From an uncultured Gemmatimonadales bacterium (lineage in GTDB: Bacteria; Gemmatimonadota; Gemmatimonadetes; Longimicrobiales; RSA9): DNA of 64,000 bases. The DNA lies in NCBI GenBank assembly GCA_963708135.1, contig OY970192.1, positions 3,232,001-3,296,000 of the forward strand, read 5' to 3'. Each line of letters starts with the position of its first letter. Position 1 is the first letter of the stretch. The translations under genes were made by a program, and so were the position numbers. Under the pieces are notes generated by a model. It saw only the letters and a program-made list of their open reading frames with translations. It ran no database searches and was not told the DNA's origin. Of the stretch, positions 2,531 through 50,172 are shown piece after piece.

Positions 2531-2980
2531 CTGGCGGGGGGGAGTGGGAGGGCGGGAGGGGCGCCCGCCTCCGACTCCGAACTGCCTTCGCAGGCAACGA
2601 GGCCCGCGGAAACGCCGGCATCCCGCCCTGCCCGGCGCTGCACCCACTCTCCCACTCGCCCACTCTCCCACTCTGGCGGGGGGAGTGGGAGGGCGGGAGG
2701 GGCGCCCGCCTCCGGTTCCGAGCTGCCTTCGCGGGCAACGAGGCCCGCGGAAACGCCGGCATCCCGCCCTGCCCGGCGCTGCACCCACTCTCCCACTCGC
2801 CCACTCTCCCACTCTGGCGGGGGGAGTGGGAGGGCGGGAGGGGCGCCCGCCTCCGACTCCGAACTGCCTTCGCGGGCAACGAGGGCCGCGGAAACGCCGG
2901 CATCCTGCCCTGCCCGGCGCAGCACCCACTCTCCCACTCGCCCACTCTCCCACTCTGGCGGGGGGAGTGGGAGGGCGGGA
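2531..2980. repeat. Three ~141-bp shortened derivatives of the 225-bp unit plus a partial fourth
   Basis: CTGGCGGG starts at 2531, 2673, 2814, 2955; shares the CCGCGGAAACGCCGGCATCC...CCCACTCTCCCACTC segment with the long unit. Confidence 0.93.
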
Positions 2981-3003
2981 TCGCGAAGATTCAGGCCGCG
3001 CGT

Positions 3004-3399
3004 TCACCGGATCTTCCATTGGCCTGGGCGGGCGGACATCACGGCGAGGCCGGCGATGATGCCGTCGTAGCGGGCGTCGTGGGCCTTCGCGGCTTCGGCA
3101 TCCATCCAGCCGGAGAGCTCCGCGAATTCGATCCAGACCCGCGTCTCCCCGGCCTCGCCCGCCGCTTCGGTCAGCTTGGCGACGAAGGCGGCGGGGTAGC
3201 GTCGCTTCTGCCAGGCCTCGGCAATGTTGGCGCAGACGGAGCGGGACGAGCGACGCATCTGGGATGTCAGCGCGTAACGCTCATCCCGCGGGAAGTGCTG
3301 GCTGGCCTCGAAGAGAGCCATGGCCGCATCGCGCGACTCACGGTAGACGCGGAGCTGCCGGTGGTCGAGGATCCGGCCCTGCCATCTGTCCTGAGGCAT
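3004..3399 (-). CDS. Four helix bundle protein (TIGR02436 / 23S rRNA-IVP family, Avd-like)
   Basis: 131 aa; L.VY...FP.DERYALTSQMRRSSRSVCANIAEAW.KRRY...F...GEAGET..W signature; GGAG upstream of ATG. Confidence 0.92.
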   Translation of the reverse strand: MPQDRWQGRILDHRQLRVYRESRDAAMALFEASQHFPRDERYALTSQMRRSSRSVCANIAEAWQKRRYPAAFVAKLTEAAGEAGETRVWIEFAELSGWMDAEAAKAHDARYDGIIAGLAVMSARPGQWKIR

Positions 3400-3436
3400 T
3401 GGCGTTCACTCCGGGCGTTGTCGTGCGCGGACGCAG

Positions 3437-3795
3437 AGAGTGGGAGAGTGGGAGACCGGGCGACGTTCGCCGGGGCCGAACGTGCCCGGGCCTCGCAGCG
3501 CTCGCAGCCGGGCGGCTTCGCCGGGGCGCCGAACGTTTCCGGCGGCTCCCCCTCCCTCGGACCCGCGTCGGCCCGATTCAACCCGCCTGCCAGCGCTCCC
3601 GGCGACCACAAGCCTGCACCGCGCCGGCAACCCGGCGCAGCCGTGGCAGCCTGCACCGCACCGCAGCCCGGCGCAGCCGTGAGCGCCCGCACCGCGCCGG
3701 CAACCCGGCGCAGCCGAGCGGAGCCTCCGCAGCCCGCGCCCCCGCCCCGCCCGGCAGCTCTCCCACTCTCCCACTCTCCCACTCTCCCACTCTCG
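3437..3795. repeat. Diverged single copy of the array unit with GAGTGGGA left arm and (CTCTCCCA)4 right arm
   Basis: GAGTGGGAGACCGGGCGACGTTCGC...CCGGGCCTCGCA matches the start of the 225-bp unit; internal duplication of GCACCGCGCCGGCAACCCGGCGCAGCCG. Confidence 0.8.
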
Positions 3796-18748: not shown

Positions 18749-18780
18749 GCGATTCGACCTTCCAACTGCTTGTCAGGGAG

Positions 18781-18960
18781 TGAACGGAGGCAACGGAGAA
18801 CGGATCCTTCCTTTTCCCCGCACCGCCCGGCCGGCCGCATTCCCGGGCGCGGCGGACGGATGAAAGAAATGGGCGGGGTCGTGCGGATGCCGGGAGGCGG
18901 CGCTCGCCCGGGTAGCGGCGCCCGCCGGCTCCGTTGCCTCCGTTCCTCCGTTTCCTCGGG
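18781..18960. repeat. Element with inverted ACGGAG-type short-repeat arms
   Basis: GAACGGAGGCAACGGAGAACGGA ... CTCCGTTGCCTCCGTTCCTCCGTTTCCTC. Confidence 0.75.
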
Positions 18961-35580: not shown

Positions 35581-35800
35581 ACAGAGGGAACGGAGGAGAC
35601 GGAGGGAACGGAGAACGGATTTCCTATTTCCCCCGCCACCGCTCCAGGAGTGCGGGTCGTACCTCCCGTGTGGGGTGGGCCGGGCGCGTCGGAGAAAGGA
35701 AAACGAGAGGGCCCGAAGCTGGCGGGGCCGCGGGCCCTCGGACGCACCGGTTCCCGGACCCGCCCGCTCCGTGTCCTCCGAGTCCTCCGTTTCCTCCGTG
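35581..35800. repeat. Element with inverted 9-mer arms (ACGGAGGRR / YYCCTCCGT)
   Basis: ACAGAGGGAACGGAGGAGACGGAGGGAACGGAG ... CTCCGTGTCCTCCGAGTCCTCCGTTTCCTCCGTG. Confidence 0.78.
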
Positions 35801-43909: not shown

Positions 43910-45832
43910 CTACCTCGCCGGCGGCCTGAACCCCAGCGTCTCCCCGGGGTCCAGCACTTCCTCGCCGACATCGCTGCGGATCCCCTCGACGCCGTCGAAG
44001 ACCTGCAGCGCGAAGGGGACCTTGCCGAAGGGGGCGCTGACCTGGAGGCCGCGCACGGCGGGGCGGACGCGCTCGAACATCTCGCGGGCGATGGCGATGC
44101 CCTCGGCCAGCGCGTGCTCCTTCCCCCTCTCGCTGGCGCGGCGCATCCGGACGAGCACGTCCTCGGGCACGACCACGCCGGGCACCTCGTTGGCGAGGAA
44201 CTCGGCGTTGCGGGCGGAGACGAGCGGCCAGATCCCGGCGACGATCGGGATCCAGATGCCGCGCTTCTCGAGCTCGGCGGTGAAGTCGAGGAGCTGGTCG
44301 GCGTCGAAGACGGGCTGGGTGACGGCGTACTCGGCGCCGGCCTCGACCTTCCAGTAGAAGCGCTCGAGCTCGTGCTCGCGGTCGGCGGCACCGGGATTCA
44401 CGCCGACGCCGATGGCGAAGGATGTCGGCTCGCCGATGGGGTTGCCGCCCGGGTCGAGCCCGTGGTTCAGCCGCACGACCAGGTTGGTGAGGCCGATGGA
44501 GTCGATGTCGAAGACGGCCGTGGACTCCGGGTACGGCCCCATCTTGGGCGGGTCGCCGGTGATGACGAGCAGGTTGCGCAGCCCGAGCGCGTGGGCGCCG
44601 AGCAGGTCGGAGAGCATGCCGAGCAGGTTCCTGTCCCGGCACGAGTAGTGGAGCACGGTCTCGATGCCGACGGTCTGCTCGATGAGCACGGCGGTGGCCA
44701 GCGCGCCCATCCGCATCTGGGCGCGCGGGCCATCCGGCACGTTGACGCCGTCGATGCCCGCGCGCTCGAGCAGCCGCACGCCCGCCAGCATCTTCGCTGG
44801 GCTGATCCCCTTGGGCGGCACGATCTCGACGGTGGTGACCAGCTCGCCGCCGGCGAGCTTCCGCCCCCAGCGCGAGCGGTCCGCCAGCGGCGTCACGGCC
44901 ACGTCGGGGGCGGCGGACTCGGGCCGGCCGACGTGCGTCGAGACGGTGCGCGGCGAAAGGGAGCGCACGGCGTCGCTTATCTGCCGGATGTGGTCGGGCG
45001 TGGTGCCGCAGCAGCCGCCCACGAACTTGACGCCGGCGCGGATGAGGCGCTGCGCGTACTTGGCCACGTACTCGGGCGAGGCCATGTACATCTTGCGGCC
45101 CGAGATCTCGCGCGGCATGCCCGCGTTCGGCTGCGCCGAGAGCTTCCTGCGCGTGACCGCGGCGGCCTTCTCGATCGCATCGAGGATCCCCGCGGGACCG
45201 ACGGAACAGTTGAAGCCGATGACGTCGGCGCCCCACTCGTCGAGCCGGACCGCGCAGACCTCGGGCGTCGTGCCGTACGTGGTCTTGCCGTCCTCCTGCA
45301 CCGTCATCTGCGCAACGACCGGAAACGTGCACGCCTCGCGCACGGCGAGCAGCGCCTCGTGGATCTCCGCGAGGTCGCTGAAGGTCTCGAGCACGAAGAA
45401 CTGCGCGCCACCCTCGAGGAGTCCTTCCGCCTGCTCCCTGAAGAACTCCCGCGCTTCCGCGAGCGATGTCGGCCCGTACGGCTCGATGCGGATCCCGAGC
45501 GGGCCGATCGAGCCGCCCACCAGCGCCCGCTCGCCCGCCGCCTCCCGCGCCACCCGCGCCGCCGCCGCGTTGATCTCGCGCACCTGCGCCTCGAGCCCGT
45601 ACTGCGCGAGCTTCACGCGGTTCGCGCCGAACGAGTTGGTCTCCAGCAGCTCCGCCCCCGCCCGCACGTACTCGCGGTGGACCTGCCGCACGAGATCGGG
45701 ATCGCGCAGGTTCAGCTCGTCATAGCAGCGGTTGATGAAGACCCCCTTCTGGTACAGCATCGTCCCCATCGCGCCGTCGAAGACGTGGGGCCGAGCGTCG
45801 GAGAGGAGGTCGAGGAAGCTGAGCTCAGGCAT
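43910..45832 (-). CDS. yitJ: Bifunctional homocysteine S-methyltransferase / methylenetetrahydrofolate reductase
   Basis: DGAMGT, GFNC, PNAG, GGCCG followed by MTHFR domain (CRDRN, ITGDPP, KVEAGA, TQPVF). Confidence 0.92.
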   Translation of the reverse strand: MPELSFLDLLSDARPHVFDGAMGTMLYQKGVFINRCYDELNLRDPDLVRQVHREYVRAGAELLETNSFGANRVKLAQYGLEAQVREINAAAARVAREAAGERALVGGSIGPLGIRIEPYGPTSLAEAREFFREQAEGLLEGGAQFFVLETFSDLAEIHEALLAVREACTFPVVAQMTVQEDGKTTYGTTPEVCAVRLDEWGADVIGFNCSVGPAGILDAIEKAAAVTRRKLSAQPNAGMPREISGRKMYMASPEYVAKYAQRLIRAGVKFVGGCCGTTPDHIRQISDAVRSLSPRTVSTHVGRPESAAPDVAVTPLADRSRWGRKLAGGELVTTVEIVPPKGISPAKMLAGVRLLERAGIDGVNVPDGPRAQMRMGALATAVLIEQTVGIETVLHYSCRDRNLLGMLSDLLGAHALGLRNLLVITGDPPKMGPYPESTAVFDIDSIGLTNLVVRLNHGLDPGGNPIGEPTSFAIGVGVNPGAADREHELERFYWKVEAGAEYAVTQPVFDADQLLDFTAELEKRGIWIPIVAGIWPLVSARNAEFLANEVPGVVVPEDVLVRMRRASERGKEHALAEGIAIAREMFERVRPAVRGLQVSAPFGKVPFALQVFDGVEGIRSDVGEEVLDPGETLGFRPPAR

Positions 45833-45850
45833 CAGCCATCTCTCTCAGCA

Positions 45851-45935
45851 GTTCACGCTTTCGCATTCGCATTCGCATTCGCATTCGCATTCGCTTTCGG
45901 CGGTTCGGCGGTTCGGCGGTTCGGCGGTTCGGCGG
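45851..45935. repeat. (TTCGCA/TTCGCT)n hexamer tract followed by (CGGTTCGG)4
   Basis: Read directly; left arm of the second four-helix gene. Confidence 0.92.
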
Positions 45936-45981
45936 CCCCACCCCAGCACGGACGCCGCGCCCGGATTCTGGCACACGCCGC

Positions 45982-46347
45982 TCATTCGCCTCTCCCTTTC
46001 CCTTTCCCCAGCAGTCCCGTGAGCATCGCCACGATCCGGTCCAGCAGCTCGCGCCCGGACCCGAGCTCGGTCTCGTCCGCGAGATGCAGCACTTCGAGGA
46101 CGTCGAGCACCGCCGCGCATTCCGTGGCCGAGCGACGCGCGAAGCGGAAGAACCGCGCCTTGTCCGCCTTGCTGAACTCGCCCGCGCCCTCGGCGATGTT
46201 CAGGGCCATGGACGTCGCGGCGCGCCGGAGCTGGTCGACCAGGTAGCCGTGCCCGGCCGGCAGCCGCTGCACGAGGGCGTTCGCCACGGCCACGAACTCG
46301 ATCGCGGCGCGGTAGACATCCATCTTCTCGTGAAAGAACGTGGGCAT
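45982..46347 (-). CDS. Four helix bundle protein (TIGR02436 / 23S rRNA-IVP family)
   Basis: HEKMDVY, DQLRRAATSMALNIAEG.G, RFF..ARRSA.EC; GGGAG RBS; GKGKG tail encoded by a hexamer repeat. Confidence 0.92.
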   Translation of the reverse strand: MPTFFHEKMDVYRAAIEFVAVANALVQRLPAGHGYLVDQLRRAATSMALNIAEGAGEFSKADKARFFRFARRSATECAAVLDVLEVLHLADETELGSGRELLDRIVAMLTGLLGKGKGRGE

Positions 46348-46462
46348 GGTTGACTCCCGTGTCGAACATGGCAGCGTGCACCCTACCGCCTCCCGGGGGC
46401 GAGGGGGGCCTCGCCCCGCCTCACCTTCGCCCGCGGAGGGCACCCTCCCCCCGCCCCCGTTT

Positions 46463-46490
46463 CGAAAGCGAAAGCGAAAGCGAAAGCGTG
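46463..46490. repeat. (CGAAAG)4CGTG tract, inverted partner of 45854-45898
   Basis: Reverse complement CACGCTTTCGCTTTCG matches the left arm CACGCTTTCGCATTCG. Confidence 0.9.
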
Positions 46491-46509
46491 CCCCGACAGA
46501 CTCGTCCGC

Positions 46510-49500
46510 TTACGCCGAGAAATATTTGGCCTCGGGATGATGCACCACCAGCGCCGCGGTGCTCAGCTCGGGAACGAGCGCGCCGGCCTCGGTGAGCTCC
46601 ATGTCCAGCCGCTCCCTCGCCGGCAGCAGCTCGAAGAGCGTGAAGTGCTGGCGGTGATCCGGGCACGCGGGATAGCCCCACGAGTAGCGCAGCCCGCGGT
46701 CCTCCGGGATCCCCAGCTCGCGGCGGATGCGGCGGTGCAGCCACTCGGCGGCGGCCTCGGCCAGGCGCACGCCGAAGCCGTGCAGGAAATAGCCCTCGCC
46801 GTAGTCGCCGCTCTTCATGAGGGCGGCGGAGCGCTCGAGCAGGCGGTCGCCGATGGTGACGACCTGGAAGGCGACGATGTCGGGGGCCCCGTTCGTGGCG
46901 GGCGCGAAGTAGTCGGCCAGGCAGAGACGGTCGCGGTCGGCCTGGCGTGGGAAGGGGAAGCGCGCGAGCTCGCGGCCGGCGTCGCCGGGAGCGTAGACGA
47001 CGAGATCGTCGCCTGCCGAGGCCGCGGGGAAGAAGCCGTAGGCGGCGCGCGGCGCGAGCAGGCCGGCGGCCTGGACCTCCCGGCGGTAGCGGCGCAGGCG
47101 CGGCTCGAACTCGTCGGTCACGAGCCGCTCCCACTCCTCGCCCTTGGCGTTCCTGGCGCCCCAGTGCAGGCGGTAGAGGGTGTTGAGCTCGATGTCCTCG
47201 TAGAGCTCCGCCAGCGGAGGGCGGTCGAGCACCTTGACGCCGAGGAACGGCGGCCTGGGGATGGCGACATCGCGCGAGGGGCCGCCGCCGTCCCGCGCCG
47301 GCCGGCCCGCCCGGGCGCGCGCCTGGAGCTCGGCGCGCCGGGCCACGCCCTCCCGGACATCCCGCTGCCGGTCGGCGATGAAGCCCTCGCGGCGGCCGGG
47401 ATCGAGCAGCGCGTCCACCGTGGCCAGCCCCTCGAACGCATCCTTGCAGTAGTAGACGCCGGGGGCGTAGAGGGCGCCGGCGTCGCCATCCACGAAGGAG
47501 GCGGCGCGCACGAAGGAGGGGTTGATGGCCGCGCCGCCGACCATGACGGGGAACGAGAGGCCGCGCGCGTGCAGCTCCTGGACGCACAGCGGCATCTGCT
47601 TCGACGTCGAGACGAGCAGCGCGGAGAGGCCGATCACGTCCGCGCCGACCTCCTGGGCGCGCTCGATGATGGTGTTGACCGGGACCTGCTTGCCGAGGTC
47701 GTGGACGGTATAGCCGTTGTTGGAGAGAATGGTGCCGACCAGGCTCTTGCCGATGTCGTGGACATCGCCGAAGACCGTGGCCAGGACGACCTTGCCCTTG
47801 GTCTCGCCTTCGACCTTCTCGAGGAAGGTCTCCAGCCGGGCGACGGCGCGCTTCATGACCTCCGCCGACTGCAGCACGAACGGCAGGATCAGCTCGCCCG
47901 CGCCGAACTTGTCGCCCACCTCCTTCATGGCGGGGAGGAGCACGTGGTTCAGGACGTGGACGGCCGCGCGGTGGGTGGGGCCGGGCCCGCCGGCCCCGCC
48001 GTTCACGCTTTCGCTTTCGCCTTCGCTTTCGCTTTCGATCCGTTCCGATTCCGGATCCAGAATTCGCCGCTGCTTCCCGATTGCCCTTTCCACCAGCTCC
48101 TCCACACCGTCCTTCTTCCGGTGCAGGATCTTCCAGTGGATGGCCTGCTCGGGCTCCATCTCCGCCGTGGGATCGACCGCCTCCTCGGCCTCGGCCTCGT
48201 GGGACTCGTAGAAGGCGATGAAGCGGGCGAGCGCATCCTCGCGGCGGTCGAAGATGAGGTCGTCGGCCAGCGCGCGCTGCTCGGCGTCGATCTCGGCGTA
48301 AGGGGTGATGTGCGCGGGGTTCACGATGGCCATGTCGAGCCCCGCCTCGACGCAGTGGTGCAGGAACACGGAGTTCAGCACCGCGCGCGCGTGGCGGGCC
48401 AGCCCGAAGCTGACGTTCGAGACGCCCAGCGAGGTGAGCACGCCCGGCAGCTCCCGCTTGATCAGCCGGATCCCCTCGATCGTGTCCACCGCGGAGTGGC
48501 GGAACTCGGCGTCGCCGGTGGCGAGCGTGAAGGTCAGCGCATCGAAGATGAGCGCGTCCGGGGCGAGGCCGTACTCCTGGGTCGAGATCTGGTGGATGCG
48601 GTGCGCCACCTCGAGCTTGCGCTCCGCCGTCTTGGCCATCCCCTCCTCGTCGATCGTCAATGCGACGACGGCGGCCCCGTGCTCCACCGCGTACGGCAGC
48701 ACCGCCTCGATGCGCTGCCGCCCGTTCTCCAGGTTGATCGAGTTCACGATCGCGCGGCCGGGGTACTGCTCGAGCGCGGCGCGCACGACGTCGTACTCGG
48801 TGGTGTCCACGACGAGCGGCGCCTCGACCCCCTGCGCGAGCAGCTTCACCAGCGCGCCCATCTGCGCTGCCTCGTCCTGCCGCTCGGTCACGGCCACGCA
48901 CACATCCAGCAGGTGCGCGCCGCCCTCGACCTGGCCGCGCGCGACCTCGAGGATGCCGTCGTAGTCCTCCGCCAGCAGCAGCCGCTTGACCGCGCGCGAG
49001 CCCTGCGCGTTCACCCGCTCGCCGATCAGCGTCGGCGCCGGCTGCTGCGCGAGCGCCGTGGCCGTCATGGCGCTGGCGACGCGGGCCACGTAGGCGACGT
49101 CGCGCGTGCGCGGCTTCTTCCCCCACACGCGTTCCACCACCTGCCGCAGGTGCTCCGGCGTGGTGCCGCAGCAGCCGCCGACCACGTTCACGCCGAGCTG
49201 CTCGACGAACTCGCCGTGCGCCTCCGCCAGCGCCTCCGGCGTGAGCGGATAGACGGCGCAGCCGGCCTCGTTGTGCGGGATGCCGGCGTTCGGGATCACG
49301 CTGATGGGTAGCCGCGTGTTGTCCGAGAGCCAGCGCACGGGCTGGCGCATGTGCTCGGGGCCGGTCGAGCAGTTGAGCCCGATCAGGTCGGCGCCGATCG
49401 CCTCGATGATGACCGTGGCCGCCTCGATGTCCGTGCCCAGCAGCATCCGGCCGGAGGTGTCCAGCGTGACCTGCACCTGCAGCGGCCGCCACGTGCCCAG

Positions 49501-50061
49501 CTCCGCGAGCGCCCGCCGGATCCCCGTCACCTGCGCCTTGACCTCGAGGATGTCCTGGCTGGTCTCGATCAGCAGCACGTCCACGCCGCCCTCGACGAGC
49601 CCCCGCGCCTGCTCGCGGAACACCTCCGCCAGCTCGCCGTACGTGGTGGCGCCGAGCGTCGGATCGGAGGTGCTCGGCAGGAACCCGCTCGGCCCGATGC
49701 TGCCCGCAACGAAGCGCGGCCGCTCCGGCGTGGCGAAGCCATCCGCCACCCGCCGGGCCAGGGAGGCGGCGGCGCGGTTCATCTCGACGATGCGGTCCTC
49801 GAGCCCGTACTCGCGCATGGTGAGGCGGTTGGCGCGGAAGGTGTCGGTCTCGACCACGTCGCAGCCGACCTCCAGGAACGAGGCGTGGATGCCCTCGACC
49901 ACCTCCGGCCTGGAGAAGACCAGGTGGTCGTTGCACCCCTCCAGGCCCGGACCACCGAAGTCGGCGGCCGCGAGCCCCAGCGCCTGGATGCTCGTCCCCA
50001 TGGCGCCGTCGAACACCAGCACGCGCTCCTTCAGCACATCGAGATACCGGCTCTCGCGCAT
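46510..50061 (-). CDS. metH: Cobalamin-dependent methionine synthase
   Basis: DGAMGT, LNCSTG, GGCCG, IGERVN pterin domain, DVHDIGK B12 motif, RYSWGYPACPD. Confidence 0.96.
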   Translation of the reverse strand: MRESRYLDVLKERVLVFDGAMGTSIQALGLAAADFGGPGLEGCNDHLVFSRPEVVEGIHASFLEVGCDVVETDTFRANRLTMREYGLEDRIVEMNRAAASLARRVADGFATPERPRFVAGSIGPSGFLPSTSDPTLGATTYGELAEVFREQARGLVEGGVDVLLIETSQDILEVKAQVTGIRRALAELGTWRPLQVQVTLDTSGRMLLGTDIEAATVIIEAIGADLIGLNCSTGPEHMRQPVRWLSDNTRLPISVIPNAGIPHNEAGCAVYPLTPEALAEAHGEFVEQLGVNVVGGCCGTTPEHLRQVVERVWGKKPRTRDVAYVARVASAMTATALAQQPAPTLIGERVNAQGSRAVKRLLLAEDYDGILEVARGQVEGGAHLLDVCVAVTERQDEAAQMGALVKLLAQGVEAPLVVDTTEYDVVRAALEQYPGRAIVNSINLENGRQRIEAVLPYAVEHGAAVVALTIDEEGMAKTAERKLEVAHRIHQISTQEYGLAPDALIFDALTFTLATGDAEFRHSAVDTIEGIRLIKRELPGVLTSLGVSNVSFGLARHARAVLNSVFLHHCVEAGLDMAIVNPAHITPYAEIDAEQRALADDLIFDRREDALARFIAFYESHEAEAEEAVDPTAEMEPEQAIHWKILHRKKDGVEELVERAIGKQRRILDPESERIESESEGESESVNGGAGGPGPTHRAAVHVLNHVLLPAMKEVGDKFGAGELILPFVLQSAEVMKRAVARLETFLEKVEGETKGKVVLATVFGDVHDIGKSLVGTILSNNGYTVHDLGKQVPVNTIIERAQEVGADVIGLSALLVSTSKQMPLCVQELHARGLSFPVMVGGAAINPSFVRAASFVDGDAGALYAPGVYYCKDAFEGLATVDALLDPGRREGFIADRQRDVREGVARRAELQARARAGRPARDGGGPSRDVAIPRPPFLGVKVLDRPPLAELYEDIELNTLYRLHWGARNAKGEEWERLVTDEFEPRLRRYRREVQAAGLLAPRAAYGFFPAASAGDDLVVYAPGDAGRELARFPFPRQADRDRLCLADYFAPATNGAPDIVAFQVVTIGDRLLERSAALMKSGDYGEGYFLHGFGVRLAEAAAEWLHRRIRRELGIPEDRGLRYSWGYPACPDHRQHFTLFELLPARERLDMELTEAGALVPELSTAALVVHHPEAKYFSA

Positions 50062-50116
50062 CCCCGCCTGCTCCCTGGAAGACTGCCCGCACCCGCGGCC
50101 GGCGCCCCCGGCCAGC

Positions 50117-50150
50117 AAAAAACCCCCGGCCACTCTGAAAGTGCGGGGGT
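50117..50150 (-). terminator. Intrinsic terminator in the metH leader
   Basis: Minus strand CCCCCGCACTTTCAGAGTGGCCGGGGG followed by TTTTTT. Confidence 0.75.
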
Positions 50151-50172
50151 CGCCCTGGGGCGGATCCTTCAT

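Follow-up and report, generated by a model that had tools for sequence, protein, structure and literature searches.

The window analyzed here, a stretch of 64,000 nucleotides (nt), comes from the genome of an uncultured Gemmatimonadales bacterium (order Longimicrobiales in the GTDB lineage; assembly GCA_963708135.1, contig OY970192.1, positions 3,232,001 to 3,296,000 of the forward strand). It carries a small gene of the four-helix-bundle family PF05635 that lies between metH and a yitJ-like gene and is enclosed by two inverted arms, each built from a short tandem repeat. This layout, a gene between inverted tandem-repeat arms, is typical of the family across phyla. The features that bear on the element are given below in window coordinates, with tandem repeats as located by Tandem Repeats Finder (TRF).

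45982-46347, minus strand: PF05635/TIGR02436 four-helix-bundle gene (Avd / S23p family), 121 amino acids (aa), from profile matches
45854-45899, minus strand: downstream arm, plus-strand sequence CACG, CTTTCG, (CATTCG)5, CTTTCG; TRF (CGCATT)7.3, score 74
46463-46490, minus strand: upstream arm, plus-strand sequence (CGAAAG)4.3 CGTG; TRF, 100% matches
48003-48037, minus strand: third arm copy, in frame within metH, plus-strand sequence GTTCACG(CTTTCG)5; TRF and translation
45896-45935, no strand assigned: another tandem repeat, (TTCGGCGG)5, next to the downstream arm; TRF, 100% matches
46348-46462, minus strand: leader from the upstream arm to the start codon, 115 nt, from the inverted repeat and the fold
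46510-50172, minus strand: metH, cobalamin-dependent methionine synthase, 1220 aa, the upstream neighbor; six Pfam domains, all MetH domains found
43910-45832, minus strand: yitJ-like gene, the downstream neighbor; Pfam PF02574 (S-methyl_trans) 2.9e-73 and PF02219 (MTHFR) 4.5e-33
About 3007-3405 (whole element 2925-3455), minus strand: second PF05635 paralog in the window, E = 1.3e-24; profile match and TRF

Read in the sense of the mRNA, the upstream arm is CACG(CUUUCG)4 and pyrimidine-rich, and the downstream arm is (CGAAAG)(CGAATG)5(CGAAAG)CGTG and purine-rich. An inverted-repeat search pairs 45854-45881 with 46463-46490 over 28 nt, at 89% complementarity and with a spacing of 581 nt; the arm duplex has U·U mismatches at regular intervals. 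The arms lie close to the neighboring genes, with 19 nt from the metH stop codon to the upstream arm and 21 nt from the end of the downstream arm to the yitJ start codon. The original prediction for this DNA had placed a (CATTCG)n arm on the left of a gene that interrupts the metH-yitJ pair, a (CGAAAG)4CGTG arm on its right, and a further tandem repeat. Both arms and the further repeat were found where they had been described, and the reading frames and Pfam domains of the two neighbors confirm that the pair is split. The further repeat, (TTCGGCGG)5, has no inverted partner, and its doubled unit occurs at no other position in the genome.

Flanking inverted repeats were scored by a local, ungapped comparison (match +1, mismatch -3), and arms were counted at scores of at least 15. 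The metH-yitJ locus scores 16, a value reached by only 1 of 300 random positions in the same genome (mean 9.9, standard deviation 1.4, 99th percentile 13, maximum 19). RNAduplex energies of 350-nt flanks did not distinguish the loci from the null (mean -292 kcal/mol) in this GC-rich genome, and the local score was used instead.

The 121-aa protein matches PF05635 (23S_rRNA_IVP) along profile positions 1-106 of 106 (E = 1.1e-21, 77.5 bits against a cut-off of 33.8) and also TIGR02436 ("four helix bundle protein"; E = 4.7e-21, 75.1 bits, cut-off 24). It carries R42, S46, N50 and E53 (R-x3-S-x3-N-x2-E), all of which are invariant or nearly so in a 17-sequence alignment. In the wider motif GxxRxxxSxxxNxxE, described as conserved in PF05635 in the accessible text of PMC3936711, the first position is Q39 instead of G. 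The closest solved structure is XCC0516 (2gsc, E = 1.8e-11), an entry with five chains, and this homology suggests that the protein is of the pentamer type.

The host genome (5.45 Mb in one contig, 72% GC, 4813 tandem-repeat arrays) contains 11 matches to PF05635, and 8 of them are flanked by inverted repeats that score at least 15. The arm units differ from paralog to paralog (CCCACTCT, CGCTTT/CGAATG, GGGTGA, TGCCCG, TGGTTG, a 14-mer, and others), and sister paralogs have related units. The second paralog in the window, about 43 kb from the metH-yitJ copy, has arms of (CCCACTCT)4 at 2925-2956 and (GAGAGTGG)2.5 at 3436-3455 that are complementary at 19 of 20 positions, and it is embedded in gene-less arrays of its own octamer. 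Thus, the claim that the window holds two divergent paralogs about 43 kb apart, each with inverted arms of its own repeat, is borne out at both loci.

Among 30 related genomes of the same order, 20 contain PF05635. From these relatives, 28 loci were fetched, 26 had flanks long enough for scoring, and 19 of the 26 score at least 15. Counts across such kin are not independent, and they include unpublished genomes: G016 (a truncated junction copy, L007, L021, L051, L083, L084, L091, L092), G015 (L004, L039), G020 (an empty junction, L026) and G087 (in the phylum-wide RNase III and PF05635 counts).

The protein phylogeny divides the family into two deep clades, A and B, and a wide sample was drawn for each by sequence patterns, with the best 80 loci kept in both. 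For clade B, a narrow alignment was used to search one genome per species, and this sample covers only the clade near the query; the clade-A sample came from a metagenome scan. The clade-B loci belong to Planctomycetota, Chlamydiota, Myxococcota, Acidobacteriota, Gammaproteobacteria, Lentisphaerota, Gemmatimonadota and others, with the top match in a Longimicrobiales metagenome-assembled genome (69%). Inverted repeats scoring at least 15 flank 40 of the 69 testable clade-B loci, compared with 7 for direct and 2 for mirror repeats. In clade A, the corresponding numbers are 32 of 68, compared with 3 direct and 0 mirror. The original prediction had proposed a general rule from two paralogs, and that rule extends to the paralogs of this genome, to the relatives and to both wide samples.

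Period and orientation of the repeats follow the protein. Paired tandem-repeat arms were found at 32 loci of the clade-B sample, all 32 with a period of 6 nt and mostly of the type (CGTGCC)n. The 35 such loci in clade A have periods of 7 (30 loci), 8 (3), 6 (1) and 21 nt (1). Within the order, the period is 7-8 nt at 11 of 11 clade-A loci and 6 nt at 19 of 22 clade-B loci. The comparison of protein phylogeny with repeat motif that the original prediction had called for therefore yields a period that tracks the two deep clades. Its idea that each paralog is paired with a repeat of its own holds at the descriptive level, in that units vary by locus, period follows protein clade, and gene-less copies share the units.

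The polarity of the arms with respect to the gene is fixed. In clade A, the upstream unit contains AG at 33 of 35 loci, compared with 11 of 35 for the downstream unit, and AGT is present upstream at 21 and downstream at 2. In clade B, CCCG is found in 22 of 32 upstream units compared with 5 of 32 downstream units. The gene itself is inverted between its arms at the metH-yitJ junction of one relative (G007) and at 5 of the 32 clade-B loci. Arm length is mostly 28-35 nt, equal to 5.3 hexamers or 4.4 heptamers, and the median distance between arm and protein match is 44-49 nt before the gene and 22-34 nt after it. At 11 loci of the clade-B sample whose surroundings have 38-49% GC, the gene has 33-45% GC and the arms have 60-87% GC, which indicates that the arm sequence is held against the base composition of the host.

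The metH-yitJ junction can be read in 21 genomes, the host and 20 relatives, and the two genes are adjacent in all of them. A PF05635 gene occupies the junction in 10 (host, G012, G009, G007 with the gene inverted, G008, G018, G014, G016 with a truncated gene, G004 with a frameshifted gene, and G030). Another 8 have a junction of only 0-200 nt (G017, G005, G003, G013, G020, G021, G019, G025), and 3 have other content (G010, G022, G028). In G010 (L023), the junction holds a 1.9-kb open reading frame (ORF) of about 630 aa that is rich in hydrophobic stretches. The junctions of G022 (L024) and G028 (L025) hold a small conserved ORF and GC-rich palindromes resembling repetitive extragenic palindromic (REP) sequences, which in G022 lie inside gene-less arms.

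Clear inverted repeat arms abut both genes at 9 of the 10 occupied junctions, and only short, weak ones were seen in G016. The junction proteins are 41-51% identical to the 121-aa protein, and the neighboring genes are 65-86% identical. Arm units differ from genus to genus and include AGGCTAGTC, AGGGCT, GGGCCGG, GGGCTG/13-mer, GGCGGGGGCGTT, CGAACT, CCCTTG and GGTGGGG types. On a tree built from 71 domains, the nine junction copies that are intact group together more than shuffled labels do, with 5 changes compared with a shuffled mean of 8.6 (0 of 500 shuffles were as low). This tree was a quick search of 119 columns, and its resolution is low as to whether the junction copy arose once or more than once; the copy may have stayed in place across genera from one origin. 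The G030 copy has 47% GC in a 62% GC context, and this difference suggests that at least one copy was acquired separately at this site. The original prediction had asked for the insertion ends and any target duplication. The arms lie directly against the stop codon of metH and the start codon of yitJ, and no target duplication is visible beside them at the junction.

The third arm, within metH, had not been noted in the original prediction. Its translation, ...ESERIESESEGESESVN..., falls in the B12 cap domain, in the loop that follows the first helix. With the upstream arm (46463-46488), about 1.5 kb away, it forms an inverted match at 25 of 26 positions (genome pair 3278463/3280006), and its end, GCGAAAGCGTGAAC when read as mRNA, is also that of the downstream arm. 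An in-frame insert of the genome's own arm unit occurs in the same metH loop in 7 of the 10 genomes with a junction cassette. Four of these have a single-arm insert (this genome, G012, G009 and G018), and that of G009 comprises 35 nt identical to its upstream arm. The inserts in G007, G008 and G014 contain both arms and form an in-frame mini-hairpin (GAGAGAG…SPSPSPS or …PGPGPGP). Genomes lacking the junction cassette have no repeat-built metH insert, except for a 21-nt repeat in G003.

Thus, all arms of one locus change together between genera. Such concerted change means either that the arms exchange sequence by gene conversion or that they are held complementary. As a separate observation, metH of G014 (G014:C2:42800-47500) is seemingly frameshifted at the repeat insert, where the matching pieces lie 130 nt apart with a stop in the read-through, and its N-terminal domain is also split into two matches. 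The cause is either damage to the gene itself or misassembly in the repeats.

The arms have also spread without the gene. The (CGAAAG) unit occurs at five other loci of the host genome. One is a gene-less mini-hairpin between two genes (genome positions 5085150-5085236), and three are solo arms that end in GCGAAAGCGTGA directly before start codons. Another is an in-frame (CGAAAG)4 near the N terminus of a CPYCGVG-motif protein (…FESESESESGKG…; G000:C1:3923300-3923420, outside the window). This in-frame copy is preceded by a partly complementary stretch and is a second case of translated arm sequence.

The octamer family of the second paralog is far larger. It comprises 211 arrays, among them 55 units in which a G-arm is followed by a C-arm at a median spacing of 173 nt; some of these units stand in tandem, and the cores form clusters of 31, 17 and 7. 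Within the window, a 225-bp unit repeated 11 times at 50-2523 is part of this family, and a 141-bp unit is repeated 3.9 times at 2426-2980; each 225-bp or 141-bp unit holds octamer arrays (AGAGTGGG / CCCACTCG). In G022, the gene-less arms at the metH-yitJ junction consist of the same unit that flanks the single PF05635 gene of that genome on another contig.

Two further gene-less inverted pairs were noted in the window. The first, at 18777-18957, consists of (GGAGGAAC)3.4 and (CTCCGTTC)3.4 about 125 nt apart, and the second, at 35584-35800, of (GAGGAAACG)3.3 and (CTCCGTGTC)3.8 about 154 nt apart. No four-helix-bundle gene with the units of either pair was seen in the host genome.

We consider the metH-yitJ element to be one copy of a widespread insertable cassette whose pentamer-type protein would recognize its own repeat arms, and from homology and comparative sequence analysis we give this reading a probability of about one half. 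A looped-out RNA with paired arms is plausible, as both the minimum free energy (MFE) and the centroid folds computed for the 671-nt segment pair the two arms. The cassette would be transcribed with the metH-yitJ operon, because scanning revealed no pattern of a promoter or terminator and because in many relatives the ORF directly adjoins the arms. In the RNA, the arms would then pair into a stem that loops out the ORF; RNase III, which this class of bacteria appears to lack, would not cut that stem. The encoded pentamer would bind its own repeat arms, either as a stem or as single strands, and thereby determine what becomes of its own transcript and of others with the same unit. Gene conversion between nearby arms would keep them alike, and occasional copying would yield the gene-less derivatives.

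A precedent for binding of this kind comes from diversity-generating retroelements (DGRs). PF05635 is the protein family of the DGR protein Avd (PMC10053308), and all five protomers of the Avd pentamer contact an 11-bp stem-loop, with flipped-out bases held in crevices between protomers (10.1101/2023.10.23.563531). As far as the accessible parts of these sources go, the likeness covers a homologous, pentameric and positively charged four-helix-bundle protein and a stem-loop encoded beside the protein's own gene. Unlike that stem-loop with its tetraloop, the putative ligand here would be a repeat-built stem of about 30 bp or its single strands.

A more specific version of the proposal, which we regard as doubtful, is that PF05635 pentamers read tandem repeats in the manner of the trp RNA-binding attenuation protein (TRAP), with one unit per protomer. 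Each unit would combine a conserved core (AGK or CCCG) with a variable spacer, at 6 or 7-8 nt by clade, and each paralog would own private sites in RNA or single-stranded DNA, namely the arms of its own gene and gene-less copies beside or within other genes such as metH and yitJ. If this were true, the family, the intervening sequences of rRNA and the so far unexplained hairpins of short tandem repeats in many bacteria would be one system, and this system could thrive in a class that no longer has RNase III, coding regions included.

Several observations weigh against recognition of the arms by the protein. Arms are missing at 3 of the 11 family members in this genome, at 7 of 26 loci in relatives and at about half of the loci in the wide samples. 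The original prediction had named genes without arms in relatives, or a lack of association between protein clade and repeat type, as findings that would tell against it; the former occur at those 7 loci, whereas the association is present. That association reduces to roughly a single deep split (3 changes on the tree), so it gives no statistical proof of co-evolution, and joint inheritance without contact suffices to explain it. Moreover, repeat periods range from 6 to 15 nt among close relatives. Conserved cores per arm, counted in phase, peak at 3-5 and at 4 and not sharply at five; a match of "five cores per arm" to a pentamer is thus unsupported as stated, and only arm length is tight.

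The fold of the whole cassette is no better than that of shuffled sequences (z = -1.06). Selection for an RNA stem would be expected to produce an excess of G·U over A·C mismatches on the gene strand. Across 96 loci, the arm mismatches number 89 G·U and 81 A·C (p = 0.59), besides 285 of other kinds, and show no such excess. Co-orientation with the upstream gene, which had been put forward as part of the general rule, is not general. Judged by a crude criterion of GC content at third codon positions (GC3), 2 of the 11 paralogs look antisense to both neighbors, and the G007 junction copy is antisense as well, which means that expression by read-through is not general.

The main rival is that the cassette is a mobile element at the level of DNA, similar to foldback elements or to miniature inverted-repeat transposable elements (MITEs). 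In this case, the arms would be terminal inverted repeats used by host functions for hairpin or cruciform copying or for recombination, the protein would be cargo or a helper acting on DNA, and an RNA stem and its binding by the protein would play no part. Evidence of this kind comes from G005, in which three cassettes share 92-98% identity along about 800 bp, their similarity ends in the arms, and their flanks are unrelated. Such near-identical copies show that gene plus arms duplicates as one unit. The G005 arms are composite, with a 48-70-nt unit made of (GCACGA)n and a non-repeat part in 2-6 copies per side. Gene-less families that share the arms, the low GC content of the G030 junction copy, the genes inverted between their arms in G007 and at 5 of 32 clade-B loci, and the lack of a G·U excess also fit a DNA element, and gene conversion fits the joint change of arms that lie 1.5 kb from each other.

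However, no transposase was found in or near the cassette. Inverted ends are present, and the junction shows no duplication beside the arms. The constant polarity of the arms and the tight arrangement of arm, ORF and arm point to a strand-specific role at the level of the transcript, and the junction copy may have stayed put across genera. On balance, we judge a purely DNA-level element to be possible but clearly less probable than a cassette whose protein recognizes its arms.

A known mobile family with a comparable layout is the REPIN-RAYT system, in which REP doublets forming hairpins (REPINs) are associated with REP-associated tyrosine transposases (RAYTs). There, a single gene is flanked by inverted hairpin-forming repeats, gene-less doublets are dispersed through the genome, and each gene has its own repeat population. 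The dispersed gene-less copies of the gene-flanking repeats described here (the CGAAAG hairpin and solo arms, and the 55 octamer intervals) are alike. The gene here is PF05635 and not Y1/HUH, and the arms are arrays of 6-8-nt units and not one palindromic REP. A RAYT reading was rejected because no match to the Y1/RAYT transposase (PF01797) was found in the host genome, while controls were positive in 6 of 14.

A second rival applies the classical mechanism of rRNA intervening sequences (IVSs) to mRNA. A nuclease specific for double-stranded RNA (dsRNA) would cut the arm stem, excise the four-helix-bundle mRNA and uncouple metH from yitJ. Of the systems described so far, the ORF-bearing IVS of 23S rRNA comes nearest to the cassette. 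The helix-45 IVS of Coxiella burnetii encodes S23p, and ORF-bearing IVSs also occur in Leptospira and others (PMC4990558). The 23S rRNA IVS has a 28-bp terminal stem that is cut by RNase III in vitro, and its 5' tandem heptamers vary in number between strains (PMC4990558). To the extent covered by the accessible text of that source, the two systems share a loop-encoded protein of the same family, inverted repeats of about 28 bp at the termini, short tandem repeats, a transcribed site, and survival of the host function. The pairing of the arms in the MFE fold and their position against the stop and start codons of the neighbors are also consistent with excision. In contrast to that IVS, the element here lies between protein-coding genes, has hexamer arms and has gene-less arm copies, one of them in frame. 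Rfam gave no match anywhere in the 64-kb window, and the cassette, being between metH and yitJ, is not in helix 25 or 45 of 23S rRNA.

RNase III itself appears to be missing. No match to an RNase III domain (PF14622, PF00636, TIGR02191) was found in the host genome, in any of 31 genomes of the order or in any of 42 genomes of the class, whereas the domain is present in 18 of 19 genomes of the phylum's other classes, a result showing that the search works on this phylum. In addition, cutting of the 25-of-26 duplex that the metH-internal arm can form with the upstream arm would destroy the metH mRNA, and the mismatches carry no G·U signal. Excision by RNase III is therefore unlikely here, and we place the nuclease-based reading low, below the DNA-level one. 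The resemblance to rRNA intervening sequences that had originally been suggested stands for the protein family and the 28-nt terminal stem, but not for RNase III, for the G·U excess or for a location in rRNA.

PF05635 occurs in 38 of the 42 genomes of the class that lacks detected RNase III (176 matches), compared with 7 of the 19 genomes of other classes (22 matches, several with internal stops). This contrast comes from one lineage split and proves nothing by itself. With the excision explanation removed by the apparent absence of RNase III from the class, a direct interaction between protein and repeat becomes the hypothesis to test.

Very improbable is a DGR-like system, in which an Avd-family protein and a reverse transcriptase would copy the arrays and leave A-to-T or A-to-G differences. 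The protein does belong to the family of Avd (PMC10053308), and arrays at one locus differ at an adenine position both here (CGAAAG vs CGAATG) and in G012 (AGGCTAATC vs AGGCTAGTC). Unlike in a DGR, no reverse transcriptase, template repeat or variable target was found here. The complete-looking host genome gave no match to RVT_1, with controls positive in 3 of 14, and there is no usual pair of template and variable repeats with a target protein; on the missing enzyme, the DGR reading was rejected.

An equally slight probability attaches to chance, in which neutral repeat slippage in GC-rich spacers would give complementary arrays unlinked to the gene: the genome is rich in tandem repeats (4813 arrays) and one of 300 random positions scores 19, but a by-product of chance is ruled out by inverted pairs far above the direct and mirror controls in three independent sets, and the polarity of the arms is fixed, their sequence resists host composition, and they co-vary between genera.

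The metH-yitJ locus and its relatives tie the PF05635 family to short tandem-repeat hairpins and make gene and arms one heritable unit. New here are the hexamer class of arms, the link of period and polarity to protein clade, the concerted arms including the in-frame metH copy, the resistance of the arms to host composition, the apparent class-wide lack of RNase III and the greater frequency of PF05635 in that class. We know of no function for the family outside DGRs in the roughly thirty years since the ORF was found in rRNA intervening sequences, nor of an explanation for short tandem-repeat hairpins between bacterial genes. If binding proves specific, the paralogs and their arms would form a natural set of orthogonal protein-repeat pairs and would provide a handle on the spread of such elements into operons and coding regions.

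No description of PF05635 genes with repeat arms outside rRNA was found in the literature searched. A parallel for the repeats is the short tandemly repeated repetitive (STRR) sequences of filamentous cyanobacteria, 7-bp tandem repeats that can form hairpins between operon genes such as hupS and hupL (PMC2670836). Their function is unexplained in that source, with transcript stability or translational coupling proposed. As described in its accessible text, they match the gene-less hairpins reported here and the heptamer arms of clade-A cassettes (30 of 35 loci), but the unit at the metH-yitJ junction is a hexamer and the host is not a cyanobacterium. The literature searched contained no published link between STRR sequences and a four-helix-bundle gene.

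For the gene, a 23S_rRNA_IVP gene between cmr3 and cmr2 in a cas operon is a parallel that was interpreted as a functional CRISPR-Cas association (PMC3936711). It likewise sits between two operon genes, and the accessible portion of that paper does not mention flanking repeats. At the locus studied here, PADLOC returned no defense-system match.

Some details of the transcript and protein complete the description of the cassette. Within the 115-nt leader, there is a GC-rich internal hairpin (46394-46406 / 46447-46459), and GGGAG lies about 8 nt upstream of the ATG. A scan of 45700-46700 for sigma-70 promoter and terminator patterns gave 0 sites, with patterns that may not fit this phylum. A short (CCTTTC)3.3 repeat at 45989-46008, which may be the remnant of an older arm, encodes the C-terminal tail GKGKGRGE of the 121-aa protein. 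A similar tail, GKGEGKGKG, ends the junction protein of G030, where it is encoded by the downstream arm itself.

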